From an uncultured Verrucomicrobiae bacterium (GTDB lineage: Bacteria; Verrucomicrobiota; Verrucomicrobiia; Limisphaerales; Palsa-1400), in assembly GCA_963764165.1 (NCBI GenBank), contig CAVXRD010000002.1:1952001-2016000 (forward strand): DNA of 64,000 nt. Direction: 5' to 3'. The notes under the pieces are model-generated. The model did no database searches and was not told the DNA's origin. It saw only the letters and a program-made list of their open reading frames with translations. Of this stretch, positions 5,029 to 36,044 are shown in pieces (within the stretch, counting starts at the first letter, position 1; the number at the start of each line of letters is the position of its first letter). Made by a program: the position numbers and the translations under genes.

Positions 5029-5145
5029 GCCACAGATGGACACAGATCAACACAGATTTTGGGACAAGGCATTTGTTGACAGGCATCGGCGGGCCGCATC
5101 ACGAATCCCGAAATTCTTATCTGTGTTGATCTGTGTCCATCTGTG
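5029..5145. repeat. Family-D palindromic repeat whose right arm is interrupted (left end of island 1)
   Basis: gccacagatggacacagatcaacacagat (5029-5057) and atctgtgttgatctgtgtccatctgtg (5119-5145); the terminal GC needed to complete the arm follows the partial copy at 22134-22150. Confidence 0.8.
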
Positions 5146-5196
5146 TTCAAGTTTTGCAAAGCCTTGCAAATACGAGGCTTATTGAACCGATGGACG

Positions 5197-5223
5197 GCCA
5201 CTGTCAGCGGAACTGTCAGTAAA
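5197..5223. promoter_or_regulatory. Putative integrase arm-type binding sites (tandem ACTGTCAG)
   Basis: GCCACTGTCAG (5197-5207) and ACTGTCAGTAAA (5212-5223); GCCACTGTCAGTAAA recurs at 22004-22018. Confidence 0.6.
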
Positions 5224-5343
5224 GCGGCGATTGCCAAAACAATTCGCCACAACTGTTCGAGAACTCGCTGAAACTTTGCCACCACTGGCGTTCGAAAACG
5301 CCGCGGATGCAGGACTGGAATATCGAAAACAGGTAATCCAGTT

Positions 5344-6381
5344 ATGAAAACGAAATTCACAATGTTCCGGCGCGGGGAAATGTTCTACATGCAGGACAGC
5401 GCGACGGGGAGACAGACCAGCCTGCGCACCAAAGACGAAACCGAAGCCAAGCGGCTACTAAGCGCCCGCAATGAAGCGCAGCAGCAGCCGACACTTAACC
5501 TTCACCTTGCCCGCGCTTACCTGACGGCAAGCGATCCTGTCTTTGTGGATCGCAATTGGCAGACCGTCATGGAGCAATTGCAGAGCCGAGGCAAGGACAG
5601 CAGCAAAGAGCGTTACGCGAGCGTGTTCAAGTCGGCATCCTTCGACGCCTTGCGCCGAAAGAAATTGTTGGAAACCACCGCCGATGATTTCTTTGCCATA
5701 TTCAAAGACGGCAAAGTGTCCATCGTCGATTTTCTGAAACGGTTGCACAATTTTGCCTTAAGCATGGGCTGGATTGCGCTGCCGGTGGTTGCGCCTTACC
5801 TCTGGCCGAAATATCAGGCCAAAGACCGGCGCGGCATCACTTCGAGCGAACAGCAGAGCATCCTTGCCCACGAGAAGAAACTCGAATGGAAGCTGTTTTT
5901 GGAACTCCTTTGGGAAACTGGCGCGGCCCAAGGCGACGCCGTGAGCATGACCGCCGAGGATGTTGATTGGCAGAGCCGGACGATCACCTATTTTCGGAAA
6001 AAGACTGGCTCGCGGGCGCAGTTCACCATCAGCAACAGGCTGGAAATGGTTTTAAGCCAGTTGCCGCGAACCGGCCCGCTGTTTCCGAACTTATCCCAAT
6101 TCACGTCCAATGACCGGGCAACCCGCTTTCGCCGCCGTTGCCAGCGGGCGGGCGTGTCGGGCGTGACGCTGCATTGCTACCGTTACGCATGGGCAGAACG
6201 GGCGCGGGTTGTCGGGATGCCGGAACGGTTTGCCCAGGCGGCACTCGGTCACAACAGCAGCGCAATTCACCGCGCCTATGCGAAGAAAGCGCAAATCATC
6301 GTGCCATCGCTTGAGGAATACGAAAGGAAGTTTGTGGCAGCCAATGACAACATTTCGCCACAAAAGGCAGTTGCGGCGTGA
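5344..6381 (+). CDS. Tyrosine recombinase/integrase
   Basis: N-terminal SLRTKD arm-binding-like motif, RKKTG, HCYR (HxxR) and LGH...HRAY; box I reads ETGAAQGD instead of TGxRxxE. Confidence 0.9.
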   Translation: MKTKFTMFRRGEMFYMQDSATGRQTSLRTKDETEAKRLLSARNEAQQQPTLNLHLARAYLTASDPVFVDRNWQTVMEQLQSRGKDSSKERYASVFKSASFDALRRKKLLETTADDFFAIFKDGKVSIVDFLKRLHNFALSMGWIALPVVAPYLWPKYQAKDRRGITSSEQQSILAHEKKLEWKLFLELLWETGAAQGDAVSMTAEDVDWQSRTITYFRKKTGSRAQFTISNRLEMVLSQLPRTGPLFPNLSQFTSNDRATRFRRRCQRAGVSGVTLHCYRYAWAERARVVGMPERFAQAALGHNSSAIHRAYAKKAQIIVPSLEEYERKFVAANDNISPQKAVAA

Positions 6382-6481
6382 AGCCGCCAAAATAATACGA
6401 AGCGGTTGAGTCTCAATAACTCAATCGCTTCTTCGCGGGAAACGCACGATTCGAAATGTCTTGATACCTCAGACTCTTTCA

Positions 6482-7417
6482 TCACGACAGAGCCTGCACG
6501 AATGTGTCCGTTCCCATGCCAGCGGGCATCCACACCGCGACGGCGGCAACGCGTTGCGCCAGTGCTCGGCTTTGTGGCGGGCGTTCTTGGAGATTCAAAA
6601 GATGAATCTGAATCGTAAATTCGTCCGCTACTTTAATGTCACGGTCACCCGGATAAACTTCCCCACGTCGAAAATTGCCGCGTTCGATACTTGCACCCTG
6701 AAATAGCTGTTCGATTTCTGAATCCTCGTCCACTGAACGAAGCCTTGGTACCTGCCCATTCCTGGGTGACCAAGACATCAAATAAACGCACGCGGTCGCG
6801 GAAGGATTCCGGTTTAGATATTCTTTTAATTGGAGCAGCAGCCCTATGAATTGCTGGCTGTCACCCGGACTGACGAATTGCAGTTGCGTGAGAAAAGAGT
6901 TGTATAATTCCTCCAAAGCAACGTGCGCATAGCCATGCTTTTGTGCCTCCGTCCGACTCGCATGACCGACGTCTGGCACAAAATTCACTGAGCCGATCAG
7001 CTGATTAACGATTGTCCTATTATGATCCAGAGATGCTTCTGTGAAATGAGGAACGCGTGGATAGAACCACTCTGACGAAAAATTCACATTTTGGTAATCG
7101 AGATCGAGAACACATTTTCGGGTCGGTTCAAATAATTGATCAAGAAAAAATGCTCTCCGCCATTCAGAAAGCGGTCGTCCAGCGACTGCATGCTGCCGGA
7201 GTTGCTCCCGTAAATGTTCTTCATGACTGACATAGGCTGTAAACGCGTCCTGCACTTCGCTTTCTAGGAAAACCCGGCACAGTCCCAGGTAGTTTCGTTT
7301 GTAACCGAGAAACCGCGCCCGCTGTTGTATCGTATCAGCATTGCCGACACCTTTTCCGCGCGGCATATAGGTGATCGTTAATCCTTCGACCGTAAATCCG
7401 CGATCCATAGCTTGGCC
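6482..7417 (-). pseudogene. Z1-domain protein (restriction-associated), 5'-truncated
   Basis: GQAMDRGFTVEGLTITYMPR...ADTIQQRARFLGY is the conserved Z1 core; everything upstream of it is missing. Confidence 0.75.
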
Positions 7418-9210
7418 GCGAGTTTACTCAAACGGATTTTGAAAGTCTTTGTCGAAGCGCGGCTTCATCGAAGCATCGCGGAACGAGCATAGGTTATCGC
7501 GGCATAGGGTTTAAATCTGTCGTGGGATTCGCCAAAGTGATTCATATTTTCAGCGGCCAGCTTGAGACAACATTTTCTCGCGAACTGACGGCGCACGCCG
7601 TTCCCCAAGCAACTCGCGTCCCGCTGGTGAGAATCCCGCACCCCGTTGAACCGAGTTTGCGGTCAAAACTCACCGACAGCCTGGATGGACTTACGAGCGA
7701 TGGATTCAAGACTGTGTTTGTTTTTACAGACCTCGTTGCCAGTGGAATCGAAGCTGAGTTTGCTGCGTTTGATCCCACTTCTTTGTTGTTTCTTCGGAAC
7801 ATTCGGCAAGTGGAACTGAAATCTGACATCGAGGCCGTCATCACAATCCGACGCGAAACGGTGGATTCCCGCACACGCTCAATTCGTCTGGCTAGTTCTG
7901 AGGGGGTGAGTAAATGGACGGTGATCGAACGGGATGGTGTGGCTCTAGCGTTTATCCATGCTGAATCTGGAATCGCGCGTCTTGAGGAACGGCAGGCAAT
8001 AATTCACGCCTTTCTGCCCACGCTCGAAACAACAGGCTTTCCGTTCAAAGTGAATGGGGATATTTCAACCGACCCTTCCCGCACCCGGATTATTTTGGAT
8101 GAGCGCACTGCCTCAGGCATTAATTCCGCCGCCAAATTGATGGTTGATCTGATTGCCGAGTGTCTCAACGCTGCATCGCCGCAAGCAGACACGAAATTAC
8201 TTGCCGCCCTTATGCCGATTTCCGATCCGCGAATGGCTTCATTTCAAAGACGAAGTTTCAGGACCGAGCTTTATTCCGCGATCAAACGCGAAGCTAATGG
8301 ACGTTTTGGCGGTTTTCTGTGTCGTCCCCAATGGCTAAATGCAGTCGATTTCTCTAAGCTAACGGAAGCGTCGGGGGCTAAATCTGTCCCTCGCAATTTG
8401 GAAAGTGTCGAGGGATTATCTGGCTTTCTCAAATTTCTCGGAGCGGGAGAAGCAACACTGAAGGATTTCTCGCCCGCTTTGACCCAGGCCGCACCTTCTT
8501 TGGCGGGCGCCGCTGAAATCGTCACACACCTGACAAATCTTCATGCCACGAAACAAATTCAGGCTGATTCAATCAAATCGGATTGGAAGCTATGGCCGGT
8601 GGACGAAATGCCGCTTTCGTTGGATGAAGCCAAAAACACATCCAAACCACTTGCTCAAAGCTTTACGGATTTGATTGCCGAGAAGTCAGGAAGCAGGACT
8701 GAATTGCCGCGAATGGTTGAAAGCCTCACCGACGCGCCGACAGCAACCACGCTGATTCCGAGCAAGCCGTTAATACCATCTCAGTCAAATGATGTAGTTG
8801 CGTCTCAGAAATCGCCAAGTCAACAATTCAGCTTAAAACGCTGGCGGGGTGCAGAGCAGCAAGTGCTTGCAGTTCTGGTAGCATGGGGGTGGAAAGTCGA
8901 GGATGTAAGCCGACAAAATATCGGCTACGACATTGAAGGAAGCACGCCAGAAGATGAGCCGGTGTGCATCGAGGTCAAATCTATCGATTATCCCGGCCAA
9001 TCTTTTACGCTCACGAGCAATGAAGAGGCGGTTGCGAGAGAAAAGGGCGATTCTTATAGACTAGCATTGGTTCGGCAGACCAACACACACCTTGAGATTG
9101 CTTTCATCCGCGACCCGGCGCGTCAACTAAAGGTCACGCGGCAGTGCCGACAATGGGTTTGGGAATGTGCCACGTACGAATTCACGCCGGAAAGGTTTCG
9201 ACTTGAATAG
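7414..9210 (+). pseudogene. Sacsin-like GHKL ATPase plus DUF3883 (NOV) nuclease-domain protein, 5'-truncated
   Basis: The frame extends upstream of the track start as GREFTQTDFESLC...SIGYRGIGFKSV (GHKL motifs) but has no N-box and no start codon. C-terminal GYDIEG...IEVKS...LTSNE is DUF3883-like. Confidence 0.75.
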
Positions 9211-9296
9211 TATGCTTCGGTTGATATGCGAATGCCCCACTCTAGGGTGCGTTTACACGGACGATGATACCATCGGAAATCGCCAAAACTGGAATT

Positions 9297-10211
9297 CTAA
9301 CTCTCGTTAGCCCGATTTGGTCTTTTTTGATTGGAATTCACGTACAAACTTTCCACATGTCTTAGGAATTCCTCTGTATTTTTAGCGTATCGTTTCTCCT
9401 TTTCACCTACGATCTTGCCGTTATCCGTGAAAGCCTCATAAACGCTGTTAGAAATGCAAGGATCATAATTATCGGTTGCGCCCTTTTTATGAAACCATTT
9501 AATCACCCGATCAAGCGCAGGCCGTGCCGTTTCCGATCCTATCGAGTCCGACTTTAATGGAACTCGGTATTCCACACACACTTGTTCCATAATATCTTTG
9601 AAAAAGGGTCCTCTTTTTTGCCAGATTTGTTCCAGCCTTTCCCATGCCGTACCAACTATGGCGCAACCGCACCATGCCGATTGCCTCTCTAATTCGTGGC
9701 ATTCAATGATTGGCTTTCCCACAAAACAATGTTGTTCAATAAAAAAATTACCCTCTGAAATTGCGCCACGCAACGGCAGGCCATAGTTGAACATTCGTTC
9801 CATCAGTGCAGCGCAGTCGGAAAAAAAATCGAACCAGTAGAGCGGTTCTGCTTCAGATGCTCTTTCCCCTTGTGGAATCTCATACCAAAGAAGAATTGAA
9901 TCGGCAAAAATGATTGAGCTTGTAGGTTTTTCACGCGGACCAGATTTCCGCACTGTTTCTTCTCTGATCTCATTTTGAATACTCAACAATCTCCCTTTTA
10001 TGATTTTGGCCGCCTCGCGAATGTTTTCATCGGAAGCAATCTTGCTGAATCCTAAAATGTCGAAATAGGCCACCAACCCCTGTTGGATTCCATCACAATT
10101 GCCAAGCAGCGATTCCTGCACAGTATTGAAACCGAATTCTACCCTCTTTCTTCCGCTACCGTTGCTGACAGCGCATGGTTGCGGCGACATCCTTAAATCT
10201 TCAAAGTTCAT
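9297..10211 (-). CDS. Stand-alone class III nucleotide-cyclase-like protein
   Basis: VAYFDILGF, IIFADSILL, LRGAISEG and VGKPIIECHELE motifs in cyclase order; start uncertain (10211 or 10190). Confidence 0.65.
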   Translation of the reverse strand: MNFEDLRMSPQPCAVSNGSGRKRVEFGFNTVQESLLGNCDGIQQGLVAYFDILGFSKIASDENIREAAKIIKGRLLSIQNEIREETVRKSGPREKPTSSIIFADSILLWYEIPQGERASEAEPLYWFDFFSDCAALMERMFNYGLPLRGAISEGNFFIEQHCFVGKPIIECHELERQSAWCGCAIVGTAWERLEQIWQKRGPFFKDIMEQVCVEYRVPLKSDSIGSETARPALDRVIKWFHKKGATDNYDPCISNSVYEAFTDNGKIVGEKEKRYAKNTEEFLRHVESLYVNSNQKRPNRANES

Positions 10212-10516
10212 TGCAGCGGTCCAATGTAAGCGTGCGGAAGAAAAAGTCAATGAAGGTTGAAGTTTGTGCCAGGACGGTTTGTTGCGCTCATTCTGACCGC
10301 CTCCTTGAACGCATTCCCCGGTTACACCACGCGGCCTTTTGATGGCTTGGCTTAAAGTCCCAGCCGCGACACGCAAGCAGAAAATCGGTTCCCCCTGAAG
10401 GTTTCCCCCAATTTTCCGCCTTGCGCGTTGCGCTTCGCCCCGGCTCCGAGGGACTTTTTTCGCTCACCATCAGGCCGCGATGGGCGCAGCCCGACAAACT
10501 TAACAAGGAGACTACC

Positions 10517-10729
10517 ATGAGTGATTCCACCAACAACCAAACCGCCGCTTCCAAAACTCCCAGCCACATCGTTTACCATGTCCGAGACCGCGAAGGCGGC
10601 GAGGGCTTCTGGACTCGCATCGGTGCAGCTTGGCCGCACAACGACGGCAAAGACTTCAACATCCAGATCGAAACCGTGCCGCTGGACGGACGCATCACGC
10701 TCCGCGTCGCTGCCGAAAAAGCGAAGTAA
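10517..10729 (+). CDS. Small conserved mobile-element protein (WTRIGAAW motif)
   Basis: AAGGAG ribosome-binding site; 70 aa with FWTRIGAAWPHNDGK, typical of plasmid/ICE leading-region hypotheticals. Confidence 0.7.
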   Translation: MSDSTNNQTAASKTPSHIVYHVRDREGGEGFWTRIGAAWPHNDGKDFNIQIETVPLDGRITLRVAAEKAK

Positions 10730-10784
10730 CGCATCAACCGGGCGGGCTTCACGGCCCGCCCTTCACCCCGAAAGGAACTTTCCC

Positions 10785-11039
10785 ATGCCAACATCACCAA
10801 CACGCGACTTGCCCACTCGCTTTGACGACTACGAAATCCACGGCGTCAAGGTATTCAAGGAATCCGGCAACAAATGGTGCGAACAAGTGCCCGACCACGA
10901 AGCGGATTTTTGGAGCCTCTACGGCCACATCCCCGGCCAAGGCTTAACCGTTCTCGGTGACTTCACGACTCGTGAGCACACGGACGAACTCTACGCCCGC
11001 ATCACTGGACGCAGCTATTCCGAAGGGAGCGACGTATGA
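10785..11039 (+). CDS. Hypothetical mobile-element protein
   Basis: AAAGGA ribosome-binding site; ATGA overlap with the next gene. Confidence 0.6.
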   Translation: MPTSPTRDLPTRFDDYEIHGVKVFKESGNKWCEQVPDHEADFWSLYGHIPGQGLTVLGDFTTREHTDELYARITGRSYSEGSDV

Positions 11040-11365
11040 CCCACACCAACCACACAATCAATCCGCTATATGCGGCCCGCATGGCACGAACCGCACACCA
11101 GCCGTCGGCGCGTCGCCAAAACGTGCCGGTCTATGCCCGGCTTCCGTTGGCACCTGTCAACGCCAGCCCTGTGCCGCATCTGACCAGCCTCTATCATTTC
11201 CACCGCGCCGGTGAATACGGCGACCGCAGTTACCCAGGCAACTGTGGCGGCAAGCTCACCGACATCATCCGGTTCAGTCACGGGGCATCCAGCAGCCGCA
11301 AGATTTACCGCAGCAGCTTCATCCCCGGTCTCCACGACGTGTGTATGGTCTTTGAAAAGGCGTAA
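11036..11365 (+). pseudogene. DNA methyltransferase remnant with internal deletion
   Basis: N-terminal YGDRSYPGNCGG is joined directly to C-terminal TDIIRFSHG...IPGLHDVCMVF; SAM-binding and catalytic motifs are absent. Confidence 0.55.
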
Positions 11366-11377
11366 CGGCTCGGAGCC

Positions 11378-11590
11378 GTGGAAGTTGTGAGGGGTTCTCC
11401 AATCATACTCGGACCTGCCATAAACGCAGGTTCGGGAATTTATCCCGACACGATTTTCGATGCGACCAACAGTTATCAGATTCAGGCGTCCACCAATCTC
11501 ACAAACTATAGCAGCGGTGGCGCGCAGACCTTTATTGACCCAAGCGCAACCAACTTGAATCGTCGTTTCTACCGCACGGCAACCCCGTGA
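11378..11590 (+). pseudogene. Orphan C-terminal fragment of a verrucomicrobial secreted protein
   Basis: YQIQASTNLTNY...FIDPSATNLNRRFYR resembles the C-termini ending at 30359, 47805 and 52534. Confidence 0.55.
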
Positions 11591-11658
11591 AGGAATAGCA
11601 GAGTCGGCTCCGGCACTGAACCAGTCAACTGCTGCGGCAACAGCTGATTGTGGGCAGG

Positions 11659-12204
11659 CTACTCTGACTTTCGGTATGAATTGAATCCGATCAGAATACA
11701 AAAGCCTATCGAACCTATGTAGGCTAATGCATAGCGACAATCTACGACGAATTGCCATGCACCGATGTGAGTGGAAAGTCTCAATACGTGCCAAGTAGCA
11801 AGCGCAAACCAAAGCAAAACGAAGAAGAAAGAAATGCCAACCGCAACAGCCGAAACGGAAAATCGTCGAAGCGGAAAAATGAAAATCCTCCGCTTTTCAT
11901 CAACCTTGTGGTCCCCAAAAAAGCCTTTCTCAAGCACTTCCTCGTACTCCTGGACTTTTATTTCCCACGCCTCGTGCCACCATTTGGAGCCGATGTTCAG
12001 GAGCGTCCAACAGAATGAACTGACAAAACCAAAGCATGAAACCAAAAGCAAAATGCCATCGGTCCGATCCTTCACACCTACATAGCCAACAAGCGCCGCA
12101 GCACTGATAAGCCAAAAGTAGTTAAAACGCTTCCAGAATAGTTCGATCTCGAAGTTTCGCAGTTGAAGTGCCTTTTCAAGTTTGGCTAGTTTGTTTTCGT
12201 CCAC
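11659..12204 (-). CDS. Multi-pass membrane protein resembling RipA-family/defence-island membrane proteins
   Basis: ALQLRNFEIELFWKRFNYFW motif followed by about four hydrophobic helices; AT-rich. Confidence 0.6.
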   Translation of the reverse strand: MDENKLAKLEKALQLRNFEIELFWKRFNYFWLISAAALVGYVGVKDRTDGILLLVSCFGFVSSFCWTLLNIGSKWWHEAWEIKVQEYEEVLEKGFFGDHKVDEKRRIFIFPLRRFSVSAVAVGISFFFVLLWFALATWHVLRLSTHIGAWQFVVDCRYALAYIGSIGFCILIGFNSYRKSE

Positions 12205-12613
12205 GATTTTTTGATCCTCCAGAATGGTGTGGTTGTTAGAGGGCCAACTATCAATATAAAACTGCAGATTGGTGTTTTAGAAGGGTCCAATAATGACCCA
12301 CGAAGTAGTGCTCCGAGTTCCCATTAGGCTCGCCGAAAGCATCTTGCGCTGAGCACAGCCCGTAGTTGCTGCGCCTAGCCTAAGCGATTTTACCACTAGC
12401 CCAACCAGTTTCTGTTTCATTCAACCACTCATAATTTCGCCATCGGCACGCAAAATCAAGCCTTTAACGCGATTATCGTTCTCAACCAGGATGTACGCCC
12501 CTAGCTGACGCATCGTTTAGTCAAATTCCTCACCGGCATGATCTTCTTTCATGTTACCTCAGACGCCCAAAGCACCCCAAACCGAACAGCGTGATTTCCC
12601 CCCTTCTTCTGAC

Positions 12614-12850
12614 TCAAAGCCCACGGAGGAAATCGCTCACAGGAATCCCGACCTCTTTCGCAATCCGCATCAACGCTTCAATGGAGATGATTTTCTCTCC
12701 TCGCTCCACTTCTCCGATGTATTTCCAGTTGAGGTCAACTTTTTCCGCCAGCATTTCTTGGGTCAGCTTCGCTTCCTTCCGGTAGCGGCGAATCGCTGCA
12801 CCGATTATCTTCCGATGCGGTAAAATGGTCTTCGGTTTGGATTTGCCCAC
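12614..12850 (-). CDS. XRE-family HTH regulator
   Basis: IRRYRKEAKLTQEMLAEKVDLNWKYIGEVERGE. Confidence 0.85.
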   Translation of the reverse strand: MGKSKPKTILPHRKIIGAAIRRYRKEAKLTQEMLAEKVDLNWKYIGEVERGEKIISIEALMRIAKEVGIPVSDFLRGL

Positions 12851-12888
12851 GGTGAGCCGTAGTTAGGCAAAATCCCCTCCAAAGCGAC

Positions 12889-12905
12889 ACCAGCAACATG
12901 CTGGT
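12889..12905. promoter_or_regulatory. Palindromic operator candidate ACCAGCA-N3-TGCTGGT
   Basis: Perfect 7-bp inverted repeat between the divergent XRE gene and the 12991 gene. Confidence 0.45.
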
Positions 12906-12990
12906 ATTTTGTTCTTGAATTCTTTGGCGCTATTTCACAAGATTCTCACGCCAGCGGCGCATAAACGCTGACGAATTACTCAAAAAAATT

Positions 12991-13236
12991 ATGAAAATTA
13001 TACGAAGACTTGGTCCCGACCCTCACGAGGGCGGAAAACAATCCGCCGGAATGCGTGGTTGCCCCGATATTCTCGAACTCGAATCCGGGGATTTTGCCAT
13101 CATCGGCGCGGACATCACTGATGCCGCCAGCGCCCACCTTCCTCCGTCCGTCGGCTGTGGCCCCGATGAGCGGATTGTCCGCATCCCAAGGGCGACGCTT
13201 GTGCTCGCCCGCTCCGACATCCCAGCGACCGTCTGA
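12991..13236 (+). CDS. Small conserved hypothetical protein (CPDILEL...FAIIG motif)
   Basis: 81-aa ORF with coding-like composition, divergent from the XRE gene. Confidence 0.7.
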   Translation: MKIIRRLGPDPHEGGKQSAGMRGCPDILELESGDFAIIGADITDAASAHLPPSVGCGPDERIVRIPRATLVLARSDIPATV

Positions 13237-13372
13237 GCACACCGCAGAACGTTCGCTACACCCCGTAATGCGGCTGAAAGCAGCGCGTTGCGGGGTTTGT
13301 CTTTTCCAGCACGCCACCCGGATTTCTACACCAACTTGGGCTAAACCATTTTTCCCGTCACACTGCGGCCCC

Positions 13373-13678
13373 ATGAAATACTCCCCCAAATACGGACGCT
13401 TTCGCGCTTTGCTGCGCAAAATCAGAGAGGAAGCCGGTTTGAGCCAAACCGCTCTGGCAGTGAAGCTTGGGAGACCGCAGACATTTGTCTCCAAATCCGA
13501 GCTTGGCGAACGCCGAGTCGATTTTACGGAAGCGGTCGAATTTTGCAAAGCGTGTCGCGTCACGGTGGGGCAGTTCGCAAAACAGCTGGAAGAAGCCACC
13601 GCGCATGATGAAACAACGAGCAGGCAAAAACGACGCAGTCCACGGAAGATGGACAGTGCAGGCCGATTGGCGGATTAA
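13373..13678 (+). CDS. XRE-family HTH regulator
   Basis: LRKIREEAGLSQTALAVKLGRPQTFVSKSELGERRVD; ATG at 13373. Confidence 0.85.
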   Translation: MKYSPKYGRFRALLRKIREEAGLSQTALAVKLGRPQTFVSKSELGERRVDFTEAVEFCKACRVTVGQFAKQLEEATAHDETTSRQKRRSPRKMDSAGRLAD

Positions 13679-13709
13679 TACTGATTTTGGGAAAAGGGGA
13701 GCGGCGGTT

Positions 13710-14165
13710 ATGGGGTTAGTGGCTTCGTGGTTGTCAATCCATTGGTTTAATTTACTCCAAACCATCGGCATCGTCGGTGGACTGATTTACAACGGATATT
13801 CGCTGCGACTTAATGCACGCGTTCGCAGGGTCGAGACGTTGTTCAAAGTCACCGAGCAGCAACGTTCTATTTGGCTGAAACTGGTCGATCCGGCCCACCT
13901 GAAACGATTATTACATGAACACGTAAATCTGGACGAGCACCCGCTGACGAATGATGAGGAGTTGTTTGTTAACCTGCTGCTATTGCATTTTGAAGCGGTC
14001 TTGGAGGCCACGCGCTCCCGCGTGTTCAAAAAGCCTGCCGGGATGGACGTTGATGTTCGGGCATTTCTGTCGCTGCCGATTCCCAATGCGGCTTGGAACA
14101 AACTGAAAGAATATCGTGACGCGAGGACGATCCGATATGTGGAGGGATTCTTAAGGGTTCGTTGA
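13710..14165 (+). CDS. Hypothetical protein with N-terminal membrane helix (DUF6082-like)
   Basis: WFNLLQTIGIVGGLIY helix followed by a helical soluble domain; GGGGAG upstream. Confidence 0.6.
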   Translation: MGLVASWLSIHWFNLLQTIGIVGGLIYNGYSLRLNARVRRVETLFKVTEQQRSIWLKLVDPAHLKRLLHEHVNLDEHPLTNDEELFVNLLLLHFEAVLEATRSRVFKKPAGMDVDVRAFLSLPIPNAAWNKLKEYRDARTIRYVEGFLRVR

Positions 14166-14557
14166 TGGGACAGGAGTCGGGGCCGAATGTCATTATTGCA
14201 TTATAGCGGTCAATTAAATGCACCAATTTCCACTCCCCGGCAAAAAATTCGACTTGAACGGCGCTGCCTCGTCGAAATTAAAGTCGCCGGAATTTAAAAT
14301 TGGTCGCGGAAGGAACCCTTTTCAAGGGTTTGTGCGATGACCCGCAGCATCCACTCAAGCAATTTATGGAGGGGAGGTTTCTCGTATTGCACGCACAGAA
14401 TGTCGTCGCCATCACGATATTCGGACCGCACCCACAATTCGTCTTCGATCATTTCCAAAGTTTGAATACTCATAATGCTTCAGATTATCGTCGCTTCTTT
14501 TGATGCTGTCATCCGTTACGAGTCGGGAAACGATGCAACCAATACGAGGGCACCGCG

Positions 14558-14690
14558 TTACGAAACGTAACTGTCCCATCGTGAAAGTCGTTTAAACGAC
14601 GACTGAGCCAAGCGGAGCACCGCTTCCCTTTCGAGGGCATCCTGAAGAATTATCCATTTACGCAACGTAACTAATCGTAAAGCTGCGTAA
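14558..14690. promoter_or_regulatory. Repeated operator-like sites TTACG-N3-CGTAA
   Basis: Palindromes at 14558-14570 and 14658-14670, extra CGTAA at 14676 and 14686, and palindrome GTCGTTTAAACGAC at 14587-14600. Confidence 0.6.
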
Positions 14691-14738
14691 ATGTTGCGAT
14701 GCCCAGACATTCAGTCTATCGTCCTCCCGTCTGTGGCT

Positions 14739-16574
14739 ATGAGCAATCAAAAGCAAGACCCCAGCATCGGAATTCGATGGGACGAAGTCAAAAAGGACTT
14801 CGCTCAACTCCTCGGCGCACTCATGCACAAGCATATTCTGTCAACCGAGGAATTGGCGATCCGTCTTGGTTTAAGTGAATCCGTGATCAGGCAGCTTCAT
14901 AATGCCAATTATCCCTACCCCGGCCCTCTCCGTAAACTCGTCAAAATCCATTCGGCAAAACCCGAGGAGGCGCCGTTTTACTTCAAACAAGGAATGGATC
15001 ACGCATTCGCCCTTGAGGCGATTGATTTTTTAAAGCTTAAGGATTTTGTCGCCTACATTTTCGAAGGGAATAATGAACGTCTGAACATTCCGCTCCGACC
15101 AATTACGACGACAATCGTCTCTACGAGGGTAAGCACCTTACCCAGGATCGAGGCTGACCAGCCGAAGTTAACTCAACATTTCAGATCGCGCACAAACACC
15201 ACTCATCCAAAAATTGCCATCTGCATGGCCGACTTTGCACATGTAGGTTTGATCAAGGATGTAGAAGCTGAAAAAAGCCGAGCAGATGACATCCGGAATT
15301 GCCTATTCGAGGCACTCGACGCAGCATTACAAGAAGCTCTCGATGCTCTACACGATCGCTCCGAATTCGTGCTCCATGTAAAAGCATCAGCAACACCGAC
15401 TCTCAAGACCACGTCTGGAATGGGCGCAATGATCATCTGGGAATATCCAACTATTTCACGCCAAATCGAACTCGGTCTCGATCTGTTCTTGATTGATTAC
15501 GCTGCCTACGCCCAATCCTATCTCTATAAAAGTCTAAACGCATTCCACGGATATTTAGGTTTTCCGTGGCTTAAACAGTTGCATCCTAGAATCGTTCTTA
15601 CCAAGGGACCGGGACTAAAGCATTTAGGCTCAAATGGCTGGGTGTTGAGTTACGAAAGTCGCAAAATAGACGAAGCGAAACGGCTCCAAAAATTGGTTCA
15701 ACGACCTGGAGTAATTATTCAAGCCGAGTTTGCGCCCGATCTCTTAATGGAGCGTTTTTGCTTTGATCAAAACAGCAGTGTAACACAGATCAATTTCGCC
15801 AAGGATGTCAACAATTCTCTCGTCAACAATCCTCAAGTATGGATGAAATTGCAAGCGGACTCAAAAGACGGGGATGGAAATCGCATCAATCGAATAGGTT
15901 GGAGGCTCCCTCGGTCCAACTTGAAAGCTGCGCCGAACATTGGAGAAGTCAAAAAGTTATTCGAGTGCCCTTACGATTTAGAATCATTGGAATGGGAAAT
16001 GAAATTTTCGGAACATGACATTGTTTCCCTCTTTGAAGTGCGCGCTCGAATTGAGGCGCAGTTTGCGGGAGAAGCGGCTTCCGCTGCTGCGAATCCTTCA
16101 TCTTTCGCAAATGGGATGCTAAATGATATTAATGCATCTGTGACGAAGATGGAAGAGATGGCAAAGACTGGCTCCGAAGCCAAAGCCATTCGAGATAAAG
16201 CTTGGCGAGCACTTGGCGATCAATTTCATTGCGGAATTGCTAGACTTTCGGACCAGCATCAAGGGGAAAAAAGAGCTGATGTTGTAAATTTAGCTTATAT
16301 CTCTACGCAGCGTGTCTGCGGTGCTGTCGAAGATCGAATTCCTCCAGTGGAAGTAGCTCGCCAGCACCGGCGAATTTTTGAAGCGATAAGGCGAGGGAAA
16401 GCAAAGGAAGCAACATCCGAAATGGAGGAACATATCTCGGCTCATTACAGAATTGCCAGAGAAGAATTGTTCAAGCAATCTATAGATGTTGCGCCGGGCG
16501 CTGCCTGCTTTCTCCAGGACTGTCCTCTTTTAACGTCACTGACCGACCAAAATAACAACTTATGCAAAATCTAA
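14739..16574 (+). CDS. Multidomain regulator: XRE-like HTH, degenerate class III cyclase-like domain, FCD (GntR C-terminal) domain
   Basis: LSTEELAIRLGLSESVIRQL; IAICMADF / SGMGAMIIW / RIVLTKGP / IDEAKRLQ / PGVII; LFEVRARIE...DQFHCGIA...QHRRIFEAI...MEEHI. Confidence 0.65.
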   Translation: MSNQKQDPSIGIRWDEVKKDFAQLLGALMHKHILSTEELAIRLGLSESVIRQLHNANYPYPGPLRKLVKIHSAKPEEAPFYFKQGMDHAFALEAIDFLKLKDFVAYIFEGNNERLNIPLRPITTTIVSTRVSTLPRIEADQPKLTQHFRSRTNTTHPKIAICMADFAHVGLIKDVEAEKSRADDIRNCLFEALDAALQEALDALHDRSEFVLHVKASATPTLKTTSGMGAMIIWEYPTISRQIELGLDLFLIDYAAYAQSYLYKSLNAFHGYLGFPWLKQLHPRIVLTKGPGLKHLGSNGWVLSYESRKIDEAKRLQKLVQRPGVIIQAEFAPDLLMERFCFDQNSSVTQINFAKDVNNSLVNNPQVWMKLQADSKDGDGNRINRIGWRLPRSNLKAAPNIGEVKKLFECPYDLESLEWEMKFSEHDIVSLFEVRARIEAQFAGEAASAAANPSSFANGMLNDINASVTKMEEMAKTGSEAKAIRDKAWRALGDQFHCGIARLSDQHQGEKRADVVNLAYISTQRVCGAVEDRIPPVEVARQHRRIFEAIRRGKAKEATSEMEEHISAHYRIAREELFKQSIDVAPGAACFLQDCPLLTSLTDQNNNLCKI

Positions 16575-17404
16575 CTGCCACGCCAATAATTCCGAAAAAT
16601 AAAGATGACATTGCTTCAATCGCTTATCGAGGCGTTTCCCTTGTCCAAAATTCCACATTACGAGATGCGCTTTCCGATACTTATCGTTCGCCGAATGGCA
16701 AAAGGGCTTTGGCTGCGGCACATGACACCTTTGACAGGCTTATTTCATCCAACTGGAGCGAAGACACGCTTTGTCGGTTCTTGTCCGGTTGGCAGTCCAT
16801 GCACGGAACGGCGCTATTTGTTAGTGGATTGGTAATTCGCTTGCACAGGCAAGCGAGTGAAACCTCCGGAGAAGCTTCTGTTGCCATGTATCGAGCCGCT
16901 GGCCAAGTGGGAGAAATAATTCCTGAGGACACCGGCGTTGATGATGTGCCTCATAACGAACGCTTCGAAGTGTTTGCGAATCAAATAGTGGGCGGCGACC
17001 GCTGGAAATTAAGTCGTTACTCTATAGATGGTTGTAATACGTTCCGTCGTTACATCAAGCAGCAAAGACTTGCGGCATCAATCGAGGATGCAATTCTTAC
17101 TACGGCGGCGTCCGAAAACTGGAATACAGGAGAATATACGTTTCTTGATTCCGTGATCCCGGCTTGGATGGTTCGTGCTTTCGGCGTTACTAAAGAACTT
17201 GCAATCGAGAAGAGCGCTTACATTTCCGTCCACGCAGGCGAAACAGAGTTGGGGCATTTTCTCCATGCCCTGGAAGCTTGGGAACTATACTGTATCGGAT
17301 CGGGGACGCGCCCTGAGCCGGATCACGCCTATCGTGTATTTGATCGCTATCTTGGACGGTTAGCAGAAGCCTTCCTCGATTTGGGCCAAGTGTTTGATAA
17401 GTGA
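16562..17404 (+). CDS. Heme-oxygenase-like diiron oxidase/oxygenase (HDO; PqqC/CADD-like fold)
   Basis: Helical protein with the ligand pattern PEDTGVDDVPH ... ASENW ... VHAGETELGH; overlaps the upstream gene by 13 bp. Confidence 0.65.
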   Translation: MQNLTATPIIPKNKDDIASIAYRGVSLVQNSTLRDALSDTYRSPNGKRALAAAHDTFDRLISSNWSEDTLCRFLSGWQSMHGTALFVSGLVIRLHRQASETSGEASVAMYRAAGQVGEIIPEDTGVDDVPHNERFEVFANQIVGGDRWKLSRYSIDGCNTFRRYIKQQRLAASIEDAILTTAASENWNTGEYTFLDSVIPAWMVRAFGVTKELAIEKSAYISVHAGETELGHFLHALEAWELYCIGSGTRPEPDHAYRVFDRYLGRLAEAFLDLGQVFDK

Positions 17405-17406
17405 CC

Positions 17407-17760
17407 TTATCGTTGCCGGAGTTTCGACCTTGAAATTCCATCCAATGCCACAGAATCGATGAAAAGGTTTTCCTGTTGATAACCACTGGTTGCAGCGCCC
17501 AAGAGGGCATACATATCCCACGCGCTCAATTTTTCTGCATGAAATCCATCCATCCCTGCCGCGATAAAAAAGGAACGCAAATCCTCAGACCGAACGCATC
17601 CCTGCTCGTGCATATTGATCGATCCGAGAAATTTCTTAAGCCGTGCCGCGCCCTCGGGAGTAAGCGCAAAATACGGCTCGTGGCCTTTAGTTTCTTTGTA
17701 GTTCGCAGTATTTCTTTCCAGGTTCTCTTGCAGTTTAAGTCCATCGCTGACTTTGGTCAT
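17407..17760 (-). CDS. Hypothetical protein
   Basis: GGAGGAG ribosome-binding site before ATG 17760; convergent with the HDO gene. Confidence 0.55.
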   Translation of the reverse strand: MTKVSDGLKLQENLERNTANYKETKGHEPYFALTPEGAARLKKFLGSINMHEQGCVRSEDLRSFFIAAGMDGFHAEKLSAWDMYALLGAATSGYQQENLFIDSVALDGISRSKLRQR

Positions 17761-17944
17761 AACTCCTCCCAAATGAATGAGCGATTATACTCTACTTTAA
17801 TGGAATCAACAATAAGCTTTGCGATGGTAGGAAACTTACTCACACGACGCTGTCGTCGTCCGGTGGAGTGTTGGAGGGCCTCGCATAGTCACGACAACTT
17901 TATCAGCTATAATTCAGTATGTTAGCGCAATAACTGGAGTCGCA

Positions 17945-19441
17945 ATGAACAATACACTGTCAGCGAACACCGGAGTGGCCATTCTCATTATCTACGGGAT
18001 CGCCATGTTTTTCCTGTCGCTTTGGGTTGTTCGAGGGCGTAGGCAAACCAAGGCCGAATTCTTGCTTGCCAGTCGCAGTGTTGGAATTATTCCAGGAGCC
18101 ATGTCTATCGCAGCGTCATGGATATGGGCTCCTGCTTTGTTTGTATCTTCTTCAAAAACTTATCAGCAAGGATTGGCGGGCCTTTTTTGGTATCTCGCGC
18201 CCAACGTCGCAACCCTTATGATTTTTGGCCCTTTTGCAGCGAAATTAAGAACAAGGTTGCCTGACGGCTATACTCTGCCGCAGCATATGCGAAACGAATA
18301 CGGCAGCGGTGTCCATGTCCTCTATTTGATTCAATTCTTTGGTCTCCAGATTTGTTGCTTCGCGGTCGAGATTTTCGCAGGAGCTACTCTCATGCATTTA
18401 ATTACGGGCCTCAGCTTCGTCTCCGTGGCGCTGTCGTTGATCGGCATTGTGCTCGCATACGCCGTGATGGGGGGCTTGAGAGCGTCTGTGGCAACGGATT
18501 ACGTCCAAATGGCAGCGATGATTGTCATTTGCGGCCTTGTCGTCCCGTGGGCTGTAGCCAAGGCCGGGGGACTTTCGGTAATTTTAGCGGGTTTGGGTGG
18601 ATTGAATGGGGCATACGTTGATCCAAACAACCCAACCAGCCCCTCCTACTCGTATGCGAACCCGCTGAACCCTTGGGTCATTTGGTCGTTTGGAATATCC
18701 AACACTATCAGCTTATTTTCCGGTCCACTTGGTGATCAAATGCAATGGCAGAGGGCTTTCGCGTTGCGCTCTCAAGGAACAGTCAAGCGGACTTTTTTTC
18801 TTGCGGCTTTACTTTTTGGGTCGGTGCCTCTGGCTTTGAGCAACCTCGGATTCATAGCATCAAACAAGGAAATTTCATCCGGCTGGAATATTACTGATCC
18901 GCAAATGGTAGGCCCCATCACTGTCGCTCACCTTTTGCCACACATGATGATAGTGATTTATGTAATCATGATATTATCAGGCCTTTGTGCGACACTGGAT
19001 TCAGTTTTATGTGCTATAGCGTCCCTTACCACGACAGACGTTTTTGGATATCAGAGTGAAAAAGCAGAGAAAGATCAGCAAGCTGTATTTATTTCACGTT
19101 GGGCAATGATTGTCGGTGCATTCTTGGGTTTTATTGTCGCGTATGTATGGCACGCTCTGCACCTCACAATCCTTGATTTGTTTCTTTTTTATGGAACGCT
19201 GAGAGCATCAACAATGATTCCAACAGTTGTTACCCTTCTTTGGCCCGGTTTGAGACCCGGAGTGATTTTTGCGACGATTCTCGCTTCCCTCCTGTTTGGT
19301 GCGCCTCTTATGGCGGCGGCTCGCCTTTCAAATGATGAACATGTCAAAGCAATTCTTAGTGTTGCGGGAAGCTTAGCCGTGGTAACCATCGGGATTGTCG
19401 GCTGCTGGATTGCTAAACGCTTCAGACAGACACAGTTGTAA
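17945..19441 (+). CDS. Sodium:solute symporter family transporter (DUR3/PutP-like)
   Basis: About 13 hydrophobic helices; SIAASWIWAPAL, GGLRASVATDYVQ, DQMQWQRAFA and LCATLDS motifs. Confidence 0.9.
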   Translation: MNNTLSANTGVAILIIYGIAMFFLSLWVVRGRRQTKAEFLLASRSVGIIPGAMSIAASWIWAPALFVSSSKTYQQGLAGLFWYLAPNVATLMIFGPFAAKLRTRLPDGYTLPQHMRNEYGSGVHVLYLIQFFGLQICCFAVEIFAGATLMHLITGLSFVSVALSLIGIVLAYAVMGGLRASVATDYVQMAAMIVICGLVVPWAVAKAGGLSVILAGLGGLNGAYVDPNNPTSPSYSYANPLNPWVIWSFGISNTISLFSGPLGDQMQWQRAFALRSQGTVKRTFFLAALLFGSVPLALSNLGFIASNKEISSGWNITDPQMVGPITVAHLLPHMMIVIYVIMILSGLCATLDSVLCAIASLTTTDVFGYQSEKAEKDQQAVFISRWAMIVGAFLGFIVAYVWHALHLTILDLFLFYGTLRASTMIPTVVTLLWPGLRPGVIFATILASLLFGAPLMAAARLSNDEHVKAILSVAGSLAVVTIGIVGCWIAKRFRQTQL

Positions 19442-19500
19442 TCCAAACACACTGTTATACCAACAATTGTTAAGGCTAGGGGGAAATTACTAACATACTT

Positions 19501-19755
19501 ATGAAAACGTGTTCTAGTTGTGGTGGTTGTGGTCGCATGGACTGTCCTCGAAGTAGCTTTGGAACAGTCACATGCACCTGCTGCGGCGGAGACGGTAAAG
19601 TTTTTGAAGGAACACGGGAGGTATTTTCCCTACTTTGCTTTTTTGGAGTGGGAAAATACGAAGTCACTTGTGCTAATTGTAAGCATGTGCATTCATACTA
19701 TTATGGCCCCATTAAACGAGCCACGTGCGAGAATTGTGGGTGCAACTTTGTTTGA
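19501..19755 (+). CDS. Small Cys-rich zinc-finger-like protein
   Basis: CSSCGGCG, CTCCGGDG (DnaJ-type CxxCxGxG), CANC and CENC in 84 aa. Confidence 0.5.
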   Translation: MKTCSSCGGCGRMDCPRSSFGTVTCTCCGGDGKVFEGTREVFSLLCFFGVGKYEVTCANCKHVHSYYYGPIKRATCENCGCNFV

Positions 19756-20265
19756 TCGATGCTCAAACCAGTGCCGCAATGTAGTTATTAGTGGGATTTG
19801 CTTTTGAACTAGATCGCATGTGTGTCCACTTCTTGATGCAGGAGTCCCTCATGTCCCGAGCGCGGCGGCTTTGCTTCGCCTTCGCACCCCGTACCCCGCC
19901 GCTGCGCTACGCAAAACCGCCGCACTCAGTCCGCCCCGGATTCGAGCTTGTCCCTCAGACGGAAAAACGCTCTGTTCCGCTTACTCGCCTGCCCCCCTTT
20001 CCCACGGGCGACCGCTCCACTGCGCGCCTTTCCGTCTGAGCGACAAAGTTTCGCGGCCCCCGCGCCCCATTTGGTAGTCATTGGGTTGTTTCCAAATCCA
20101 TTTTTTTGCGCGGTTCTCCTGCCTATCGCCCTCACCAGCCTGCTTTTCGAGCCGGGGGCCGGGCGCGGTTCCTCCTGAAGGCGACCTCCGCTGGCCGCCC
20201 GTCTCGGCAGGCTTTCTCGGTTGAAGGGCGATAGGCCGAGAACGCACAGAGCAAAAAAAAAGATT

Positions 20266-20652
20266 ATGAAAACAAAACAAAATCCAAAATCAGTTTCAGA
20301 GCTCCAGAACCGGACCGCACAGGGCAGTGAAGGCAAAGCGGAATTGCCGAAGATCGATTTGAACAAGCGCAACCGCAACCGGGTTTTGCCGATGGAATCC
20401 TTGCTTGAGTTGATTCGGAAGGAAGGACCCGCGTTTTGGGATGCCGTGGAAGTCGTCGGCAAATGGGTTTGGTTGCAGTTGGACGGCAAGCAGCCGAAGG
20501 AGATTACCGCCGTAATTTCGCAACTTGGCTTTCATTGGAACAACCGCCGCCAAGTCTGGCAGCACCCATGCGGACAGGTGACTGTCAGGGCCGACTTTGA
20601 CCCCCGCCGCAAATACCGCTCCTACTTCCCATCAGACCAGAAACCGGCCTAA
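20266..20652 (+). CDS. Hypothetical mobile-element protein
   Basis: EVVGKWVW...LGFHWNNRRQVW motif; TAATG coupling to the JAB gene. Confidence 0.65.
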   Translation: MKTKQNPKSVSELQNRTAQGSEGKAELPKIDLNKRNRNRVLPMESLLELIRKEGPAFWDAVEVVGKWVWLQLDGKQPKEITAVISQLGFHWNNRRQVWQHPCGQVTVRADFDPRRKYRSYFPSDQKPA

Positions 20653-21179
20653 TGGAGATTTTACCCATGAACGAACAAATACCATTGTTTCCGGGTTTCG
20701 ACATCGTGAAACCGTTCAAGTTTCCGGCGCAGCCTTATGAATACAAGGTGACCGCCTTGCGGGAGTGTCCGACACCGGAACACATGCAGGAATGCGACAC
20801 ACCGGGCAAGGTTGCGGATTACTGGCGCAGGCACGTTCCCGCCCATCCGTATTTTAGCCCGGAATGCGAATGTTTCGTTGTCCTGATTCTCAACACCCGC
20901 CGCAGGGTGAAAGGTCATTACTTGGTCAGTGTCGGCACGATGGACTGTATTCTTGTCCACCCTCGGGAGGTTTTCAGGCTCGCGATTATGACCGCCGCAT
21001 CGGGCATCGTGTTGACCCACAACCACCCCAGCGGGGAGGCGTCCCCATCCGAAGCTGACATTAAGGTGACGCGTGACCTGATACGCGCCGGGCAACTTCT
21101 GAAAATCGAAGTCATTGACCACGTTGTGATCGGCAACCCCGGCCATGTTTCGCTCCATGAGCTTGGATACTTGTCTTGA
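20652..21179 (+). CDS. RadC-like JAB/MPN domain protein
   Basis: VHPREVF, HNHPSG...PSEADI and IDHVVIG. Confidence 0.92.
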   Translation: MEILPMNEQIPLFPGFDIVKPFKFPAQPYEYKVTALRECPTPEHMQECDTPGKVADYWRRHVPAHPYFSPECECFVVLILNTRRRVKGHYLVSVGTMDCILVHPREVFRLAIMTAASGIVLTHNHPSGEASPSEADIKVTRDLIRAGQLLKIEVIDHVVIGNPGHVSLHELGYLS

Positions 21180-21183
21180 ACCC

Positions 21184-21377
21184 ATGAAACGCAACAAACG
21201 CCGCTTGCCTATCCCGCAGCACGAATTTGGTTTGTGCCCGACACGTTCACCCTGATTCAGGAAACCGGACTGGACGGAGATCGTTTGGCCCACGAACGCG
21301 CCGAGGCAGACCGCGCCCGGACTTTGGCCGAGAAAGCGCAAGCGGCTTTGTTCAACCCACCACCACGCAAAAACTGA
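21184..21377 (+). pseudogene. Small hypothetical gene with a 1-bp frameshift
   Basis: MKRNKRRLPIPQHEFG continues as VPDTFTLIQETGLDGDRLAHERAEA...KN* if one T is added to the run at 21231-21233; this fills the gap between the flanking genes. Confidence 0.5.
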
Positions 21378-21378
21378 T

Positions 21379-21780
21379 ATGAACACCGACGAAAACGAAT
21401 CGCCCTTTGGGCCAATTATTTACAGCTACACACGCGCCCAAGCCCTTGCCGATGGCGTGCAGGTTGACGTAACCACCACAGCGCAGGAAGCCGGAATTCG
21501 TTTTCCTGTATTCCTGACCCGCACTGTCTTTGACGCATACGTGACCGTTCCGCCCGGCATAGACGGGCAGGATGAAGCCGGGAGACTTTGGGACGTGCTT
21601 ACCCTCTTACGGCACGCCATCCGCGCCGCACGGCCCGGCCAAGACCGCTTGCCGTTTGCGCTCTACGTGCGCAACGACAACCGCCGCGCAAAACTCGTGA
21701 AGTTGATCGCCGCTTGCGGCGCAAAAGACATCGACGATCCGCAGCCGGCCATTACGGTAATGATGCGGGGGGAGGATTGA
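21379..21780 (+). CDS. DUF6573-like mobile-element protein
   Basis: IYSYTRAQALADGVQVDV...QDEAGRLWDVL...PAITVM. Confidence 0.75.
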   Translation: MNTDENESPFGPIIYSYTRAQALADGVQVDVTTTAQEAGIRFPVFLTRTVFDAYVTVPPGIDGQDEAGRLWDVLTLLRHAIRAARPGQDRLPFALYVRNDNRRAKLVKLIAACGAKDIDDPQPAITVMMRGED

Positions 21781-22174
21781 TCCACCCGAAAACACACGCC
21801 CGGCTAGACTGAAAACAGTTCAGCCGGTTTTTAAGTTTGGGGACTCGCGCCGTCCCCAAACCCCCACCGCCAGAGGCATGGCCTCTGGACTCCATCACTC
21901 GCTTGCGCTGGCTTTTCCGCTTTCGCGCCCTTTCCGACATCGCGGAAAGGATATTGTTTGAAATCACCGGCACCGCTGAAATTCTGGCGGGTCAAACGAG
22001 CGTGCCACTGTCAGTAAAACCTCCAGTGAAAGCACCTGAAAGTTAGCAAAAATAGTGGCGAGTTAGGGCGAATTTTCATTGATTTTCAGAGGGAAAAGCT
22101 GTATTTTCCTCGTGTCTGAATTCGATAGACAGACTGTGTCAATCTGTGGCCAGAATCAGATGCGGCCCTGGCAA

Positions 22175-24811: not shown

Positions 24812-26168
<1,357 letters not shown>

Positions 26169-26172
<4 letters not shown>

Positions 26173-36006: not shown

Positions 36007-36044
36007 TGGCCACAGATGGACACAGATCCACACAGATAAGAATT
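36007..36044. repeat. Intact single arm of the family-D repeat
   Basis: tggccacagatggacacagatccacacagataagaatt. Confidence 0.75.

Follow-up and report, generated by a model that had tools for sequence, protein, structure and literature searches.

A 64,000-nucleotide stretch of the genome of an uncultured Verrucomicrobiae bacterium (contig CAVXRD010000002.1, positions 1,952,001 to 2,016,000; hereafter the window) carries a 17,003-bp genomic island that is inserted in one arm of a short repeat dispersed through the host chromosome. The lineage of tyrosine integrases to which the island's own integrase belongs very probably targets this repeat, because the ends of its elements coincide at one repeat base across many host sites and because the empty sites found for two sister elements hold a single intact arm or none. 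The account as a whole, which is drawn from sequence comparison, is also probable: the island would be a cargo-laden mobilizable element of the Verrucomicrobiota whose repeat-targeting integrase works with a mismatch-tolerant overlap.

Homologous loci were collected from 61 related genomes (30 loci), from the best 80 of 334 metagenome hits and from the best 80 of 105 genome hits. Rows without 230 nt upstream or a protein start were dropped, namely 17 of 113, 3 of 9 and 7 of 68 in the identity bands of at least 70%, 55–70% and below 55%, respectively. In the closest band, a script placed 92 of 96 left ends in the repeat, the window's own being counted, and the other four were read by eye as an ATCTGCG variant. 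Between 55 and 70% identity, three left ends lie at tRNA genes, one in the repeat and two elsewhere, and below 55% (n = 61) there are 55 at tRNA ends, six unassigned and none in the repeat. A stricter junction parser accepted 86 rows and skipped 11; with the second element of the window's own genome added, 75 distinct host flanks are found among 87 left ends. For right ends, a profile built from the three ends in the window's own genome gave only eight hits in the loci and was replaced by a pattern search, which matched 33 times, in 19 of the 31 genomes that bear elements, and never in the control. All but two of the 30 right ends read by eye show upstream tandem arm-type motifs. Two different elements (L049 and L075) occupy the same base of one 99%-identical flank. 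A preliminary description of this DNA had proposed that the integrase family uses a dispersed repeat as its chromosomal attachment site (attB), and had named the ends of homologous elements as one test; those ends support the proposal, and neither of the outcomes that would have told against it was seen in them or in the sister empty sites described below.

In the window, the island is delimited by two 15-bp cores (Table 1) that differ solely at core position 8, and the ends read as first described, at 5119–5145 and 22134–22152. No further core match with up to one mismatch was found inside the island on either strand. The guanine-plus-cytosine content is 51.0% in the island and 59.2% and 58.1% in its flanks, and the insertion has purS on one side and the 3′ end of uvrB on the other. 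With the left core retained, taking the island out restores an exact inverse of the neighboring arm at 5029–5057, as had been claimed; with the right core, one mismatch remains. The claimed match to the intact copy at 36007–36044 likewise amounts to 37 or 36 of 38 bases, depending on the core retained; which of the two was the host's original cannot be told from the sequence. The ACTGTCAG motifs noticed just inside both ends are indeed there, and all of them lie on the + strand. A tRNA target for this island was rejected, as the sole tRNA gene in the window (24812–24903) belongs to another integrase. It marks the start of a separate island (seen at 24812–26172), which begins at tRNA-Ser(GCT) and whose 441-aa integrase open reading frame (ORF) extends into the tRNA gene on the opposite strand.

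The repeat arm is a tandem of three 10-mers. It occurs 121 times in the 7.0-Mb genome at up to five mismatches, compared with 0 for a reversed-arm control, and a two-unit target pattern occurs 136 times. Although ORFs of at least 150 aa make up 82% of the genome, just 13 of the 121 arms fall inside them, and this intergenic position suggests that the arms may serve as neutral landing sites, as was proposed. The host repeat had been called multicopy and palindromic: the first term stands, and the second applies to a part of the copies, since 40 inverted pairs were found among 134 arms (up to six mismatches), with spacers of 9–169 bp that are mostly unrelated. A further inverted pair of the same arms, unoccupied, lies at 620–648 and 728–756 of the window. 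A related pattern was found in 34 of 61 genomes of the order.

Genes of the GxxExxY family offer a possible source of the repeat. Arms of the ATCYGTG type flank four of 17 family matches from five genomes, and the remaining matches have other three-unit repeats. In all 15 fetched loci with one GxxExxY flank, an intact arm follows the stop codon and no element is present. The repeat may have originated as the termini of GxxExxY cassettes. The inverted three-unit repeats that flank GxxExxY genes (L246–L262 and L284–L309) belong to several different families, ATCYGTG among them, and one orthologous intergenic gap has different repeat families in different relatives.

Sites that relatives hold without an element bear on whether the arm was there before the island. 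The flanking genes of the sister element L120 are adjacent in 10 of 11 relatives (in one, the contig ends), three of which have one intact three-unit arm at that place, and the remaining relatives have other repeats or none. For the sister L129, all 11 relatives have the two flanks together in one locus, and L277 has one lone intact arm there. The expectation that an empty site should hold one intact arm, and not two separate copies, was therefore borne out at both loci. These sites came from searches of relatives, and none was found among the homologue loci already collected. They also largely refute the idea that the arms are the element's own ends or scars, seeded by elements, with no pre-existing host target. 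In keeping with that idea, attP (the attachment site of the circular element) and the arm have 15 bp in common, and repeat and element co-occur in all five element-bearing genomes checked. However, outside the core the sequence follows each host's own variant, genomes with 38–54 matches are devoid of a clade integrase, arms stand intact beside GxxExxY genes in the 15 loci mentioned above, and orthologous gaps contain this repeat, other repeats or none in different relatives. Such a seeded origin is highly improbable.

The pairing of arms raises the question of whether the integrase recognizes a folded hairpin, as an integron integrase does on attC. The window's arm has an inverted partner 61 bp away, and a partner within 200 bp accompanies 21 of 61 left ends. 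By contrast, no partner lies within 600 bp of 34 of the 61 left ends (a strict pattern, which may undercount), the L277 empty site is a lone arm, and the enzyme has an N-terminus of the arm-binding type and scores 16.7 bits with the integron-integrase model TIGR02249 against a cut-off of 265. We regard hairpin recognition as very unlikely; the partner arm appears to be dispensable, and the target is likely read as double-stranded DNA.

The integrase has a sole Pfam match, to PF00589 (E 2.6e-13). Its AlphaFold model (mean predicted local distance difference test score 83, predicted template modeling score 0.58) has full-length lambda integrase (1z1g) as the best Foldseek match (E 2.6e-10), and strands E5–10, E13–18 and E24–26 followed by helix H32–47 form the predicted arm-binding N-terminus. 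The Phage_integrase catalytic domain and fold of lambda-type enzymes are thus present, and predicted arm-type motifs are conserved at both element ends. The canonical RKHRH-Y set is incomplete: K, H, R, H and Y are present and the first Arg is absent. This box I Arg is missing in 89 of 89 proteins compared, in all of which R218 and K220 are invariant, and an alignment with XerA has Ala or Ser at its position. A search of solved structures gave no hits with the single sequence and five weak hits with a profile.

The position of strand exchange can be approached from the element ends. In the attP pieced together from them, short inverted motifs (ACAGAC and ATCTGT) surround core positions 2–8, and two elements with other repeat units, L131 and L142, show the same 7-bp spacing on inspection by eye. 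Twelve pairs of left and right attachment sites (attL and attR) were compared: six differ at positions 6–8, three at position 12 and none at position 2, so that half of them lack the identical overlap typical of lambda-type enzymes, if the overlap lies where it is placed here. Near-identical left ends at different sites (n = 17) all agree at position 12, 16 of them also agree at position 2, and six pairs differ at positions 6–8. The identical right ends L048, L052 and L054 carry three different triplets. Since position 12 is constant at left ends and positions 6–8 vary at both, position 12 would lie to the right of the exchange and positions 6–8 could come from either partner, a pattern expected for a heteroduplex overlap. 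It is reasonably likely that the predicted 7-bp overlap tolerates mismatches.

In the mechanism that we propose, the integrase would likely recombine its circular attP with any copy of the tandem 10-mer repeat. The N-terminal domain would bind the ACTGTCAG arm sites, and the enzyme would cut around a 7-bp overlap at core positions 2–8, between the short inverted motifs of attP. The first four overlap bases would need to match the target and the last three might mismatch, as for IntDOT, the integrase of CTnDOT. Heteroduplex products would then segregate, which would explain the frequent difference between the two ends of an element. With such tolerance, a single attP could serve for most repeat variants and for both registers of the three-unit arm, which would cover the 136 two-unit sites.

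A more conventional alternative keeps the target and has a classical, homology-strict overlap, with the end differences lying outside it or arising from later mutation or recombination between sisters. Six of the 12 end pairs are identical at positions 6–8, in other genomes a C stands at position 8 of 74 of 75 left ends and of all 30 right ends, and the best structural match is lambda integrase itself. This alternative is nevertheless improbable, as near-identical elements differ from one another at positions 6–8 of both ends and agree at position 12 of the left end, the element E2 and the orphan left end have the triplets of the window's genome at attL, and the differences are confined to variable repeat positions.

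Apart from the six identical pairs, several points weigh against a repeat-targeting, mismatch-tolerant integrase. The right-end pattern fixed 10 of the 15 core positions, so only 2, 6–8 and 12 were free to vary; ends were paired by contig, strand and distance, and the pair of L112 is possibly nested; the differences at positions 6–8 might have arisen later, by mutation or through the formation of chimeras of sister elements. The loci are largely related metagenome contigs and hence not independent samples, and eleven rows failed the stricter parser. Among 60 sampled relatives, no clade integrase exceeds 56% identity, though several hold 38–54 repeat matches, so the presence of the repeat does not guarantee colonization. 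In all five relatives examined, purS is not beside uvrB; uvrB was found in each, and purS and purQ were not in the fetched loci. The ATCYGTG set taken alone has a Shimodaira–Hasegawa-like approximate likelihood ratio test (SH-aLRT) value of 74, in a tree rooted at its midpoint. Finally, the missing Arg is shared with tRNA-targeting relatives; being family-wide, it predates the switch of target and did not cause it.

The lineage likely acquired its repeat target after leaving the 3′ end of tRNA-Asn. Trees were built from 89 proteins, de-duplicated from 165, with five rows relabeled by eye as repeat variants. The repeat-targeting group and a sister pair (L142/L143) form one branch (SH-aLRT 100) within the tRNA-Asn group under midpoint rooting. 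The derivation from tRNA targeting is supported by this nesting among tRNA-targeting integrases, whose arm-type motifs the clade retains. Homology with the target begins at the C that also marks its start in tRNA T-loops, and when the genome's own tRNA targets are aligned at that C, the eight bases past a 7-nt stretch read ACCTTTGG in tRNA-Asn and ATCTGTGG in the repeat. Six of the eight are alike, and tRNA-Asn is closer to the repeat than are the Thr or Cys targets; this likeness would fit a small step from tRNA-Asn to the repeat. Fourteen alignment columns of the integrase are diagnostic of the clade.

Related integrases use two further repeat families. The L142/L143 integrases (genomes G090 and G091; 61% identity) belong to elements with ends in a second dispersed repeat, which has 31 and 21 matches per genome, and the L142 element is complete, its removal restoring the repeat. 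On the tRNA-Thr branch, L183/L184 (G092) lie within a REP-like repeat (REP, repetitive extragenic palindromic), and the genome that carries them also has empty copies of this repeat, with a nearly identical flank, at L240, L243 and L244; the right ends of L183/L184 were not found. These two likely represent an independent switch from tRNA to repeat.

Eight further integrase homologues are encoded in the genome of the window. One belongs to a second complete element (C1:568082–584784, L263, 16.7 kb), both ends of which lie in another arm, one register over (units 1–2 instead of 2–3); this integrase is 84% identical over 237 aa and then cut off at about residue 239 by a deletion. An orphan left end at C1:529640 (L265) lies in a repeat arm and has no integrase. 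A right-hand part at C1:52000–64234 (L264) encodes a coupling protein, a truncated relaxase, RadC and DUF6573, lacks a left end and has an orphan right end in an arm at C1:64202. Decay or rearrangement between sister elements is a possible origin of these orphan ends. The other seven homologues (41–45%) are located at the 3′ ends of tRNA-Thr, -Cys and -Asn or at tandem copies thereof, and those at tRNA-Thr have the ACTGTCAG motif and a homologous right end in common with the repeat-targeting element.

Tentatively, these observations can be joined in a broader reading that we hold as a working idea. A mismatch-tolerant, Arg-shifted active site would make the lineage retargetable and let it leave tRNA 3′ ends repeatedly to colonize whichever short intergenic repeat expands, with at least two independent switches (from tRNA-Asn to the ATCYGTG arms and the second, 21–31-copy repeat, and from tRNA-Thr to the REP-like repeat). 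If ATCYGTG arms form the termini of GxxExxY cassettes, the islands would profit from a smaller selfish element as it spreads, accumulate in several copies per genome and rearrange the chromosome via their common ends.

The genes of the island comprise a mixed cargo, part of it defense-like, between backbone segments related to sister elements (Table 1). No genes for a relaxase or a coupling protein were found in the window's island. Among 13 sister regions, from which 125 of 147 ORFs were submitted to the gene scan, a MobA/MobL relaxase is present in five and a TraG/TraD-type protein in six, some of them partial. An integrative mobilizable element (IME) has an integrase, attL and attR as direct repeats and an empty site, all of which the family shows, the empty sites coming from the sisters L120 and L129; it also has a relaxase or coupling protein without a mating channel, which the window's island lacks and the sisters provide. 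The family thus qualifies as IMEs, and the window's copy would be a deleted form without the relaxase and coupling genes. The sisters would spread by their own relaxase and coupling protein with a helper conjugation system, and the window's copy, having lost both transfer genes, would need both in trans. Four sister elements (L263, L266, L268 and L269) contain a second, P4-type (Arm-DNA-bind_3) integrase within the backbone. At L048:9839–12703, the integrase ORF and a type I restriction R fragment share one reading frame (954 aa), probably through a deletion.

Table 1 Features of the island and of the host repeat, in window coordinates
Position	Strand	Feature
5029..5057	+	Partner arm (three 10-mer units) belonging to the host repeat; lies outside the element, at 61 bp from the split arm
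5119..5145	-	Split host arm, left piece, terminating in the attL core (5131-5145); predicted 7-bp overlap 5132-5138 (position inferred)
5200..5219	+	Tandem pair of ACTGTCAG motifs (5200-5207, 5212-5219), predicted to be arm-type sites of the integrase; common to tRNA-targeting relatives
5344..6381	+	Tyrosine integrase, 345 aa, open frame; modeled with three domains; A195 (no Arg) at the canonical first position; invariant R218-x-K220, H277-x-x-R280, H303 and Y312
6482..7408	-	Cargo ORF, partial Z1 domain
7522..9210	+	Cargo NOV_C-domain protein, partial similarity to Tiamat TmtA models
9297..10376	-	Cargo 359-aa ORF without family match
10270..11365	+	Backbone remnant, 70-90% DNA identity to sister elements
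11659..12204	-	Cargo 8xMP-family membrane protein
13010..13678	+	ORF with XRE-type helix-turn-helix; its true start is probably further downstream
14691..19441	+	Cargo cluster: FCD-domain protein (14691-16574), 280-aa ORF without assignment (16562-17404), sodium:solute symporter (17945-19441)
20221..21780	+	Right-end backbone module: small ORF, RadC-like JAB protein (20652-21179), DUF6573 protein (21379-21780); present in several sisters
22007..22014	+	Right-end ACTGTCAG motif, predicted to be an arm-type site
22134..22152	-	attR core (22134-22148; predicted overlap 22135-22141) and outer end of the host arm (22149-22152)
36007..36044	+	Intact unoccupied repeat arm; 36-37 of 38 bases match the reconstructed empty site

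Islands with tyrosine integrases are regarded as occupying a single site, in a tRNA gene or another unique gene. The passages of an IME review that deal with targets list tRNA ends, gene ends, the origin of transfer (oriT) and AT-rich DNA, state that high-specificity IMEs are rarely multicopy and mention no dispersed-repeat target (PMC5704250). Intergenic attB sites have been reported, with no dispersed-repeat class in the parts consulted of the two studies concerned (PMC13626063, PMC12884075). One pipeline for mining att sites is described as discarding multi-copy candidate attB sites (PMC12884075), and a repeat-targeting class would therefore be under-counted. Our literature search found no tyrosine integrase that uses such a dispersed repeat, within a scope that left aside most subscription papers and supplements, where such elements may be tabulated.

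The island and its sisters resemble tRNA-targeting islands and IMEs, including their own relatives at tRNA-Asn, -Cys, -Thr and -Ser, in the integrase beside attL, the short direct repeats and the arm-type motifs, and the relaxase and coupling genes of tRNA-targeting IMEs have counterparts in the sisters. In contrast to those islands, the target here is a dispersed intergenic repeat with about 120 copies, which likely offers many landing sites per genome. The tRNA- and repeat-bound relatives, with the same arm motifs, a different core site and a few different residues, provide a natural series for how integrases change target.

Other mobile elements use repeated DNA by different means. The phiRv1 element of Mycobacterium tuberculosis likewise has a site-specific integrase and an attB in a repeated chromosomal sequence, REP13E12 (PMC9317374). 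It is a prophage-like element with a serine recombinase and few target copies, whereas the repeats considered here have 30–130. For phiRv1, there are reportedly seven REP13E12 copies. The MDA filamentous phage, in the dRS3 repeats of Neisseria (PMC2212043), and the REP-targeting insertion sequences (IS) ISPa11, ISPpu9 and ISPpu10 (PMC1525189) are, as here, mobile DNA inserting in high-copy intergenic repeats. Both depend on IS-type transposases, unlike the lambda-type, tRNA-derived tyrosine integrase of the island. The transposase of MDA is IS110-like.

The closest parallel in chemistry is IntDOT, for which a 7-bp overlap, tolerance of mismatches away from the first cut and several chromosomal sites have been described (PMC2817482, PMC3809561). 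Its first catalytic Arg is absent and a downstream Arg takes its place (PMC8138268); the window's integrase fits that description, with R218 in the predicted role. Overlap tolerance and a shifted Arg would thus be common to both enzymes, each trait being deduced here from the sequence. For the sites of CTnDOT, in contrast, the consulted portions of these papers describe no dispersed repeat family (PMC2817482, PMC3809561, PMC8138268). What is likely new in the present system is the predicted mismatch-tolerant 7-bp overlap, the active site without a first Arg, the apparently dispensable hairpin partner and the two additional repeat families. If the mismatch tolerance is true, IntDOT-like chemistry would extend to an unrelated phylum, and the integrase would be a candidate tool for multi-site integration in Verrucomicrobiota.

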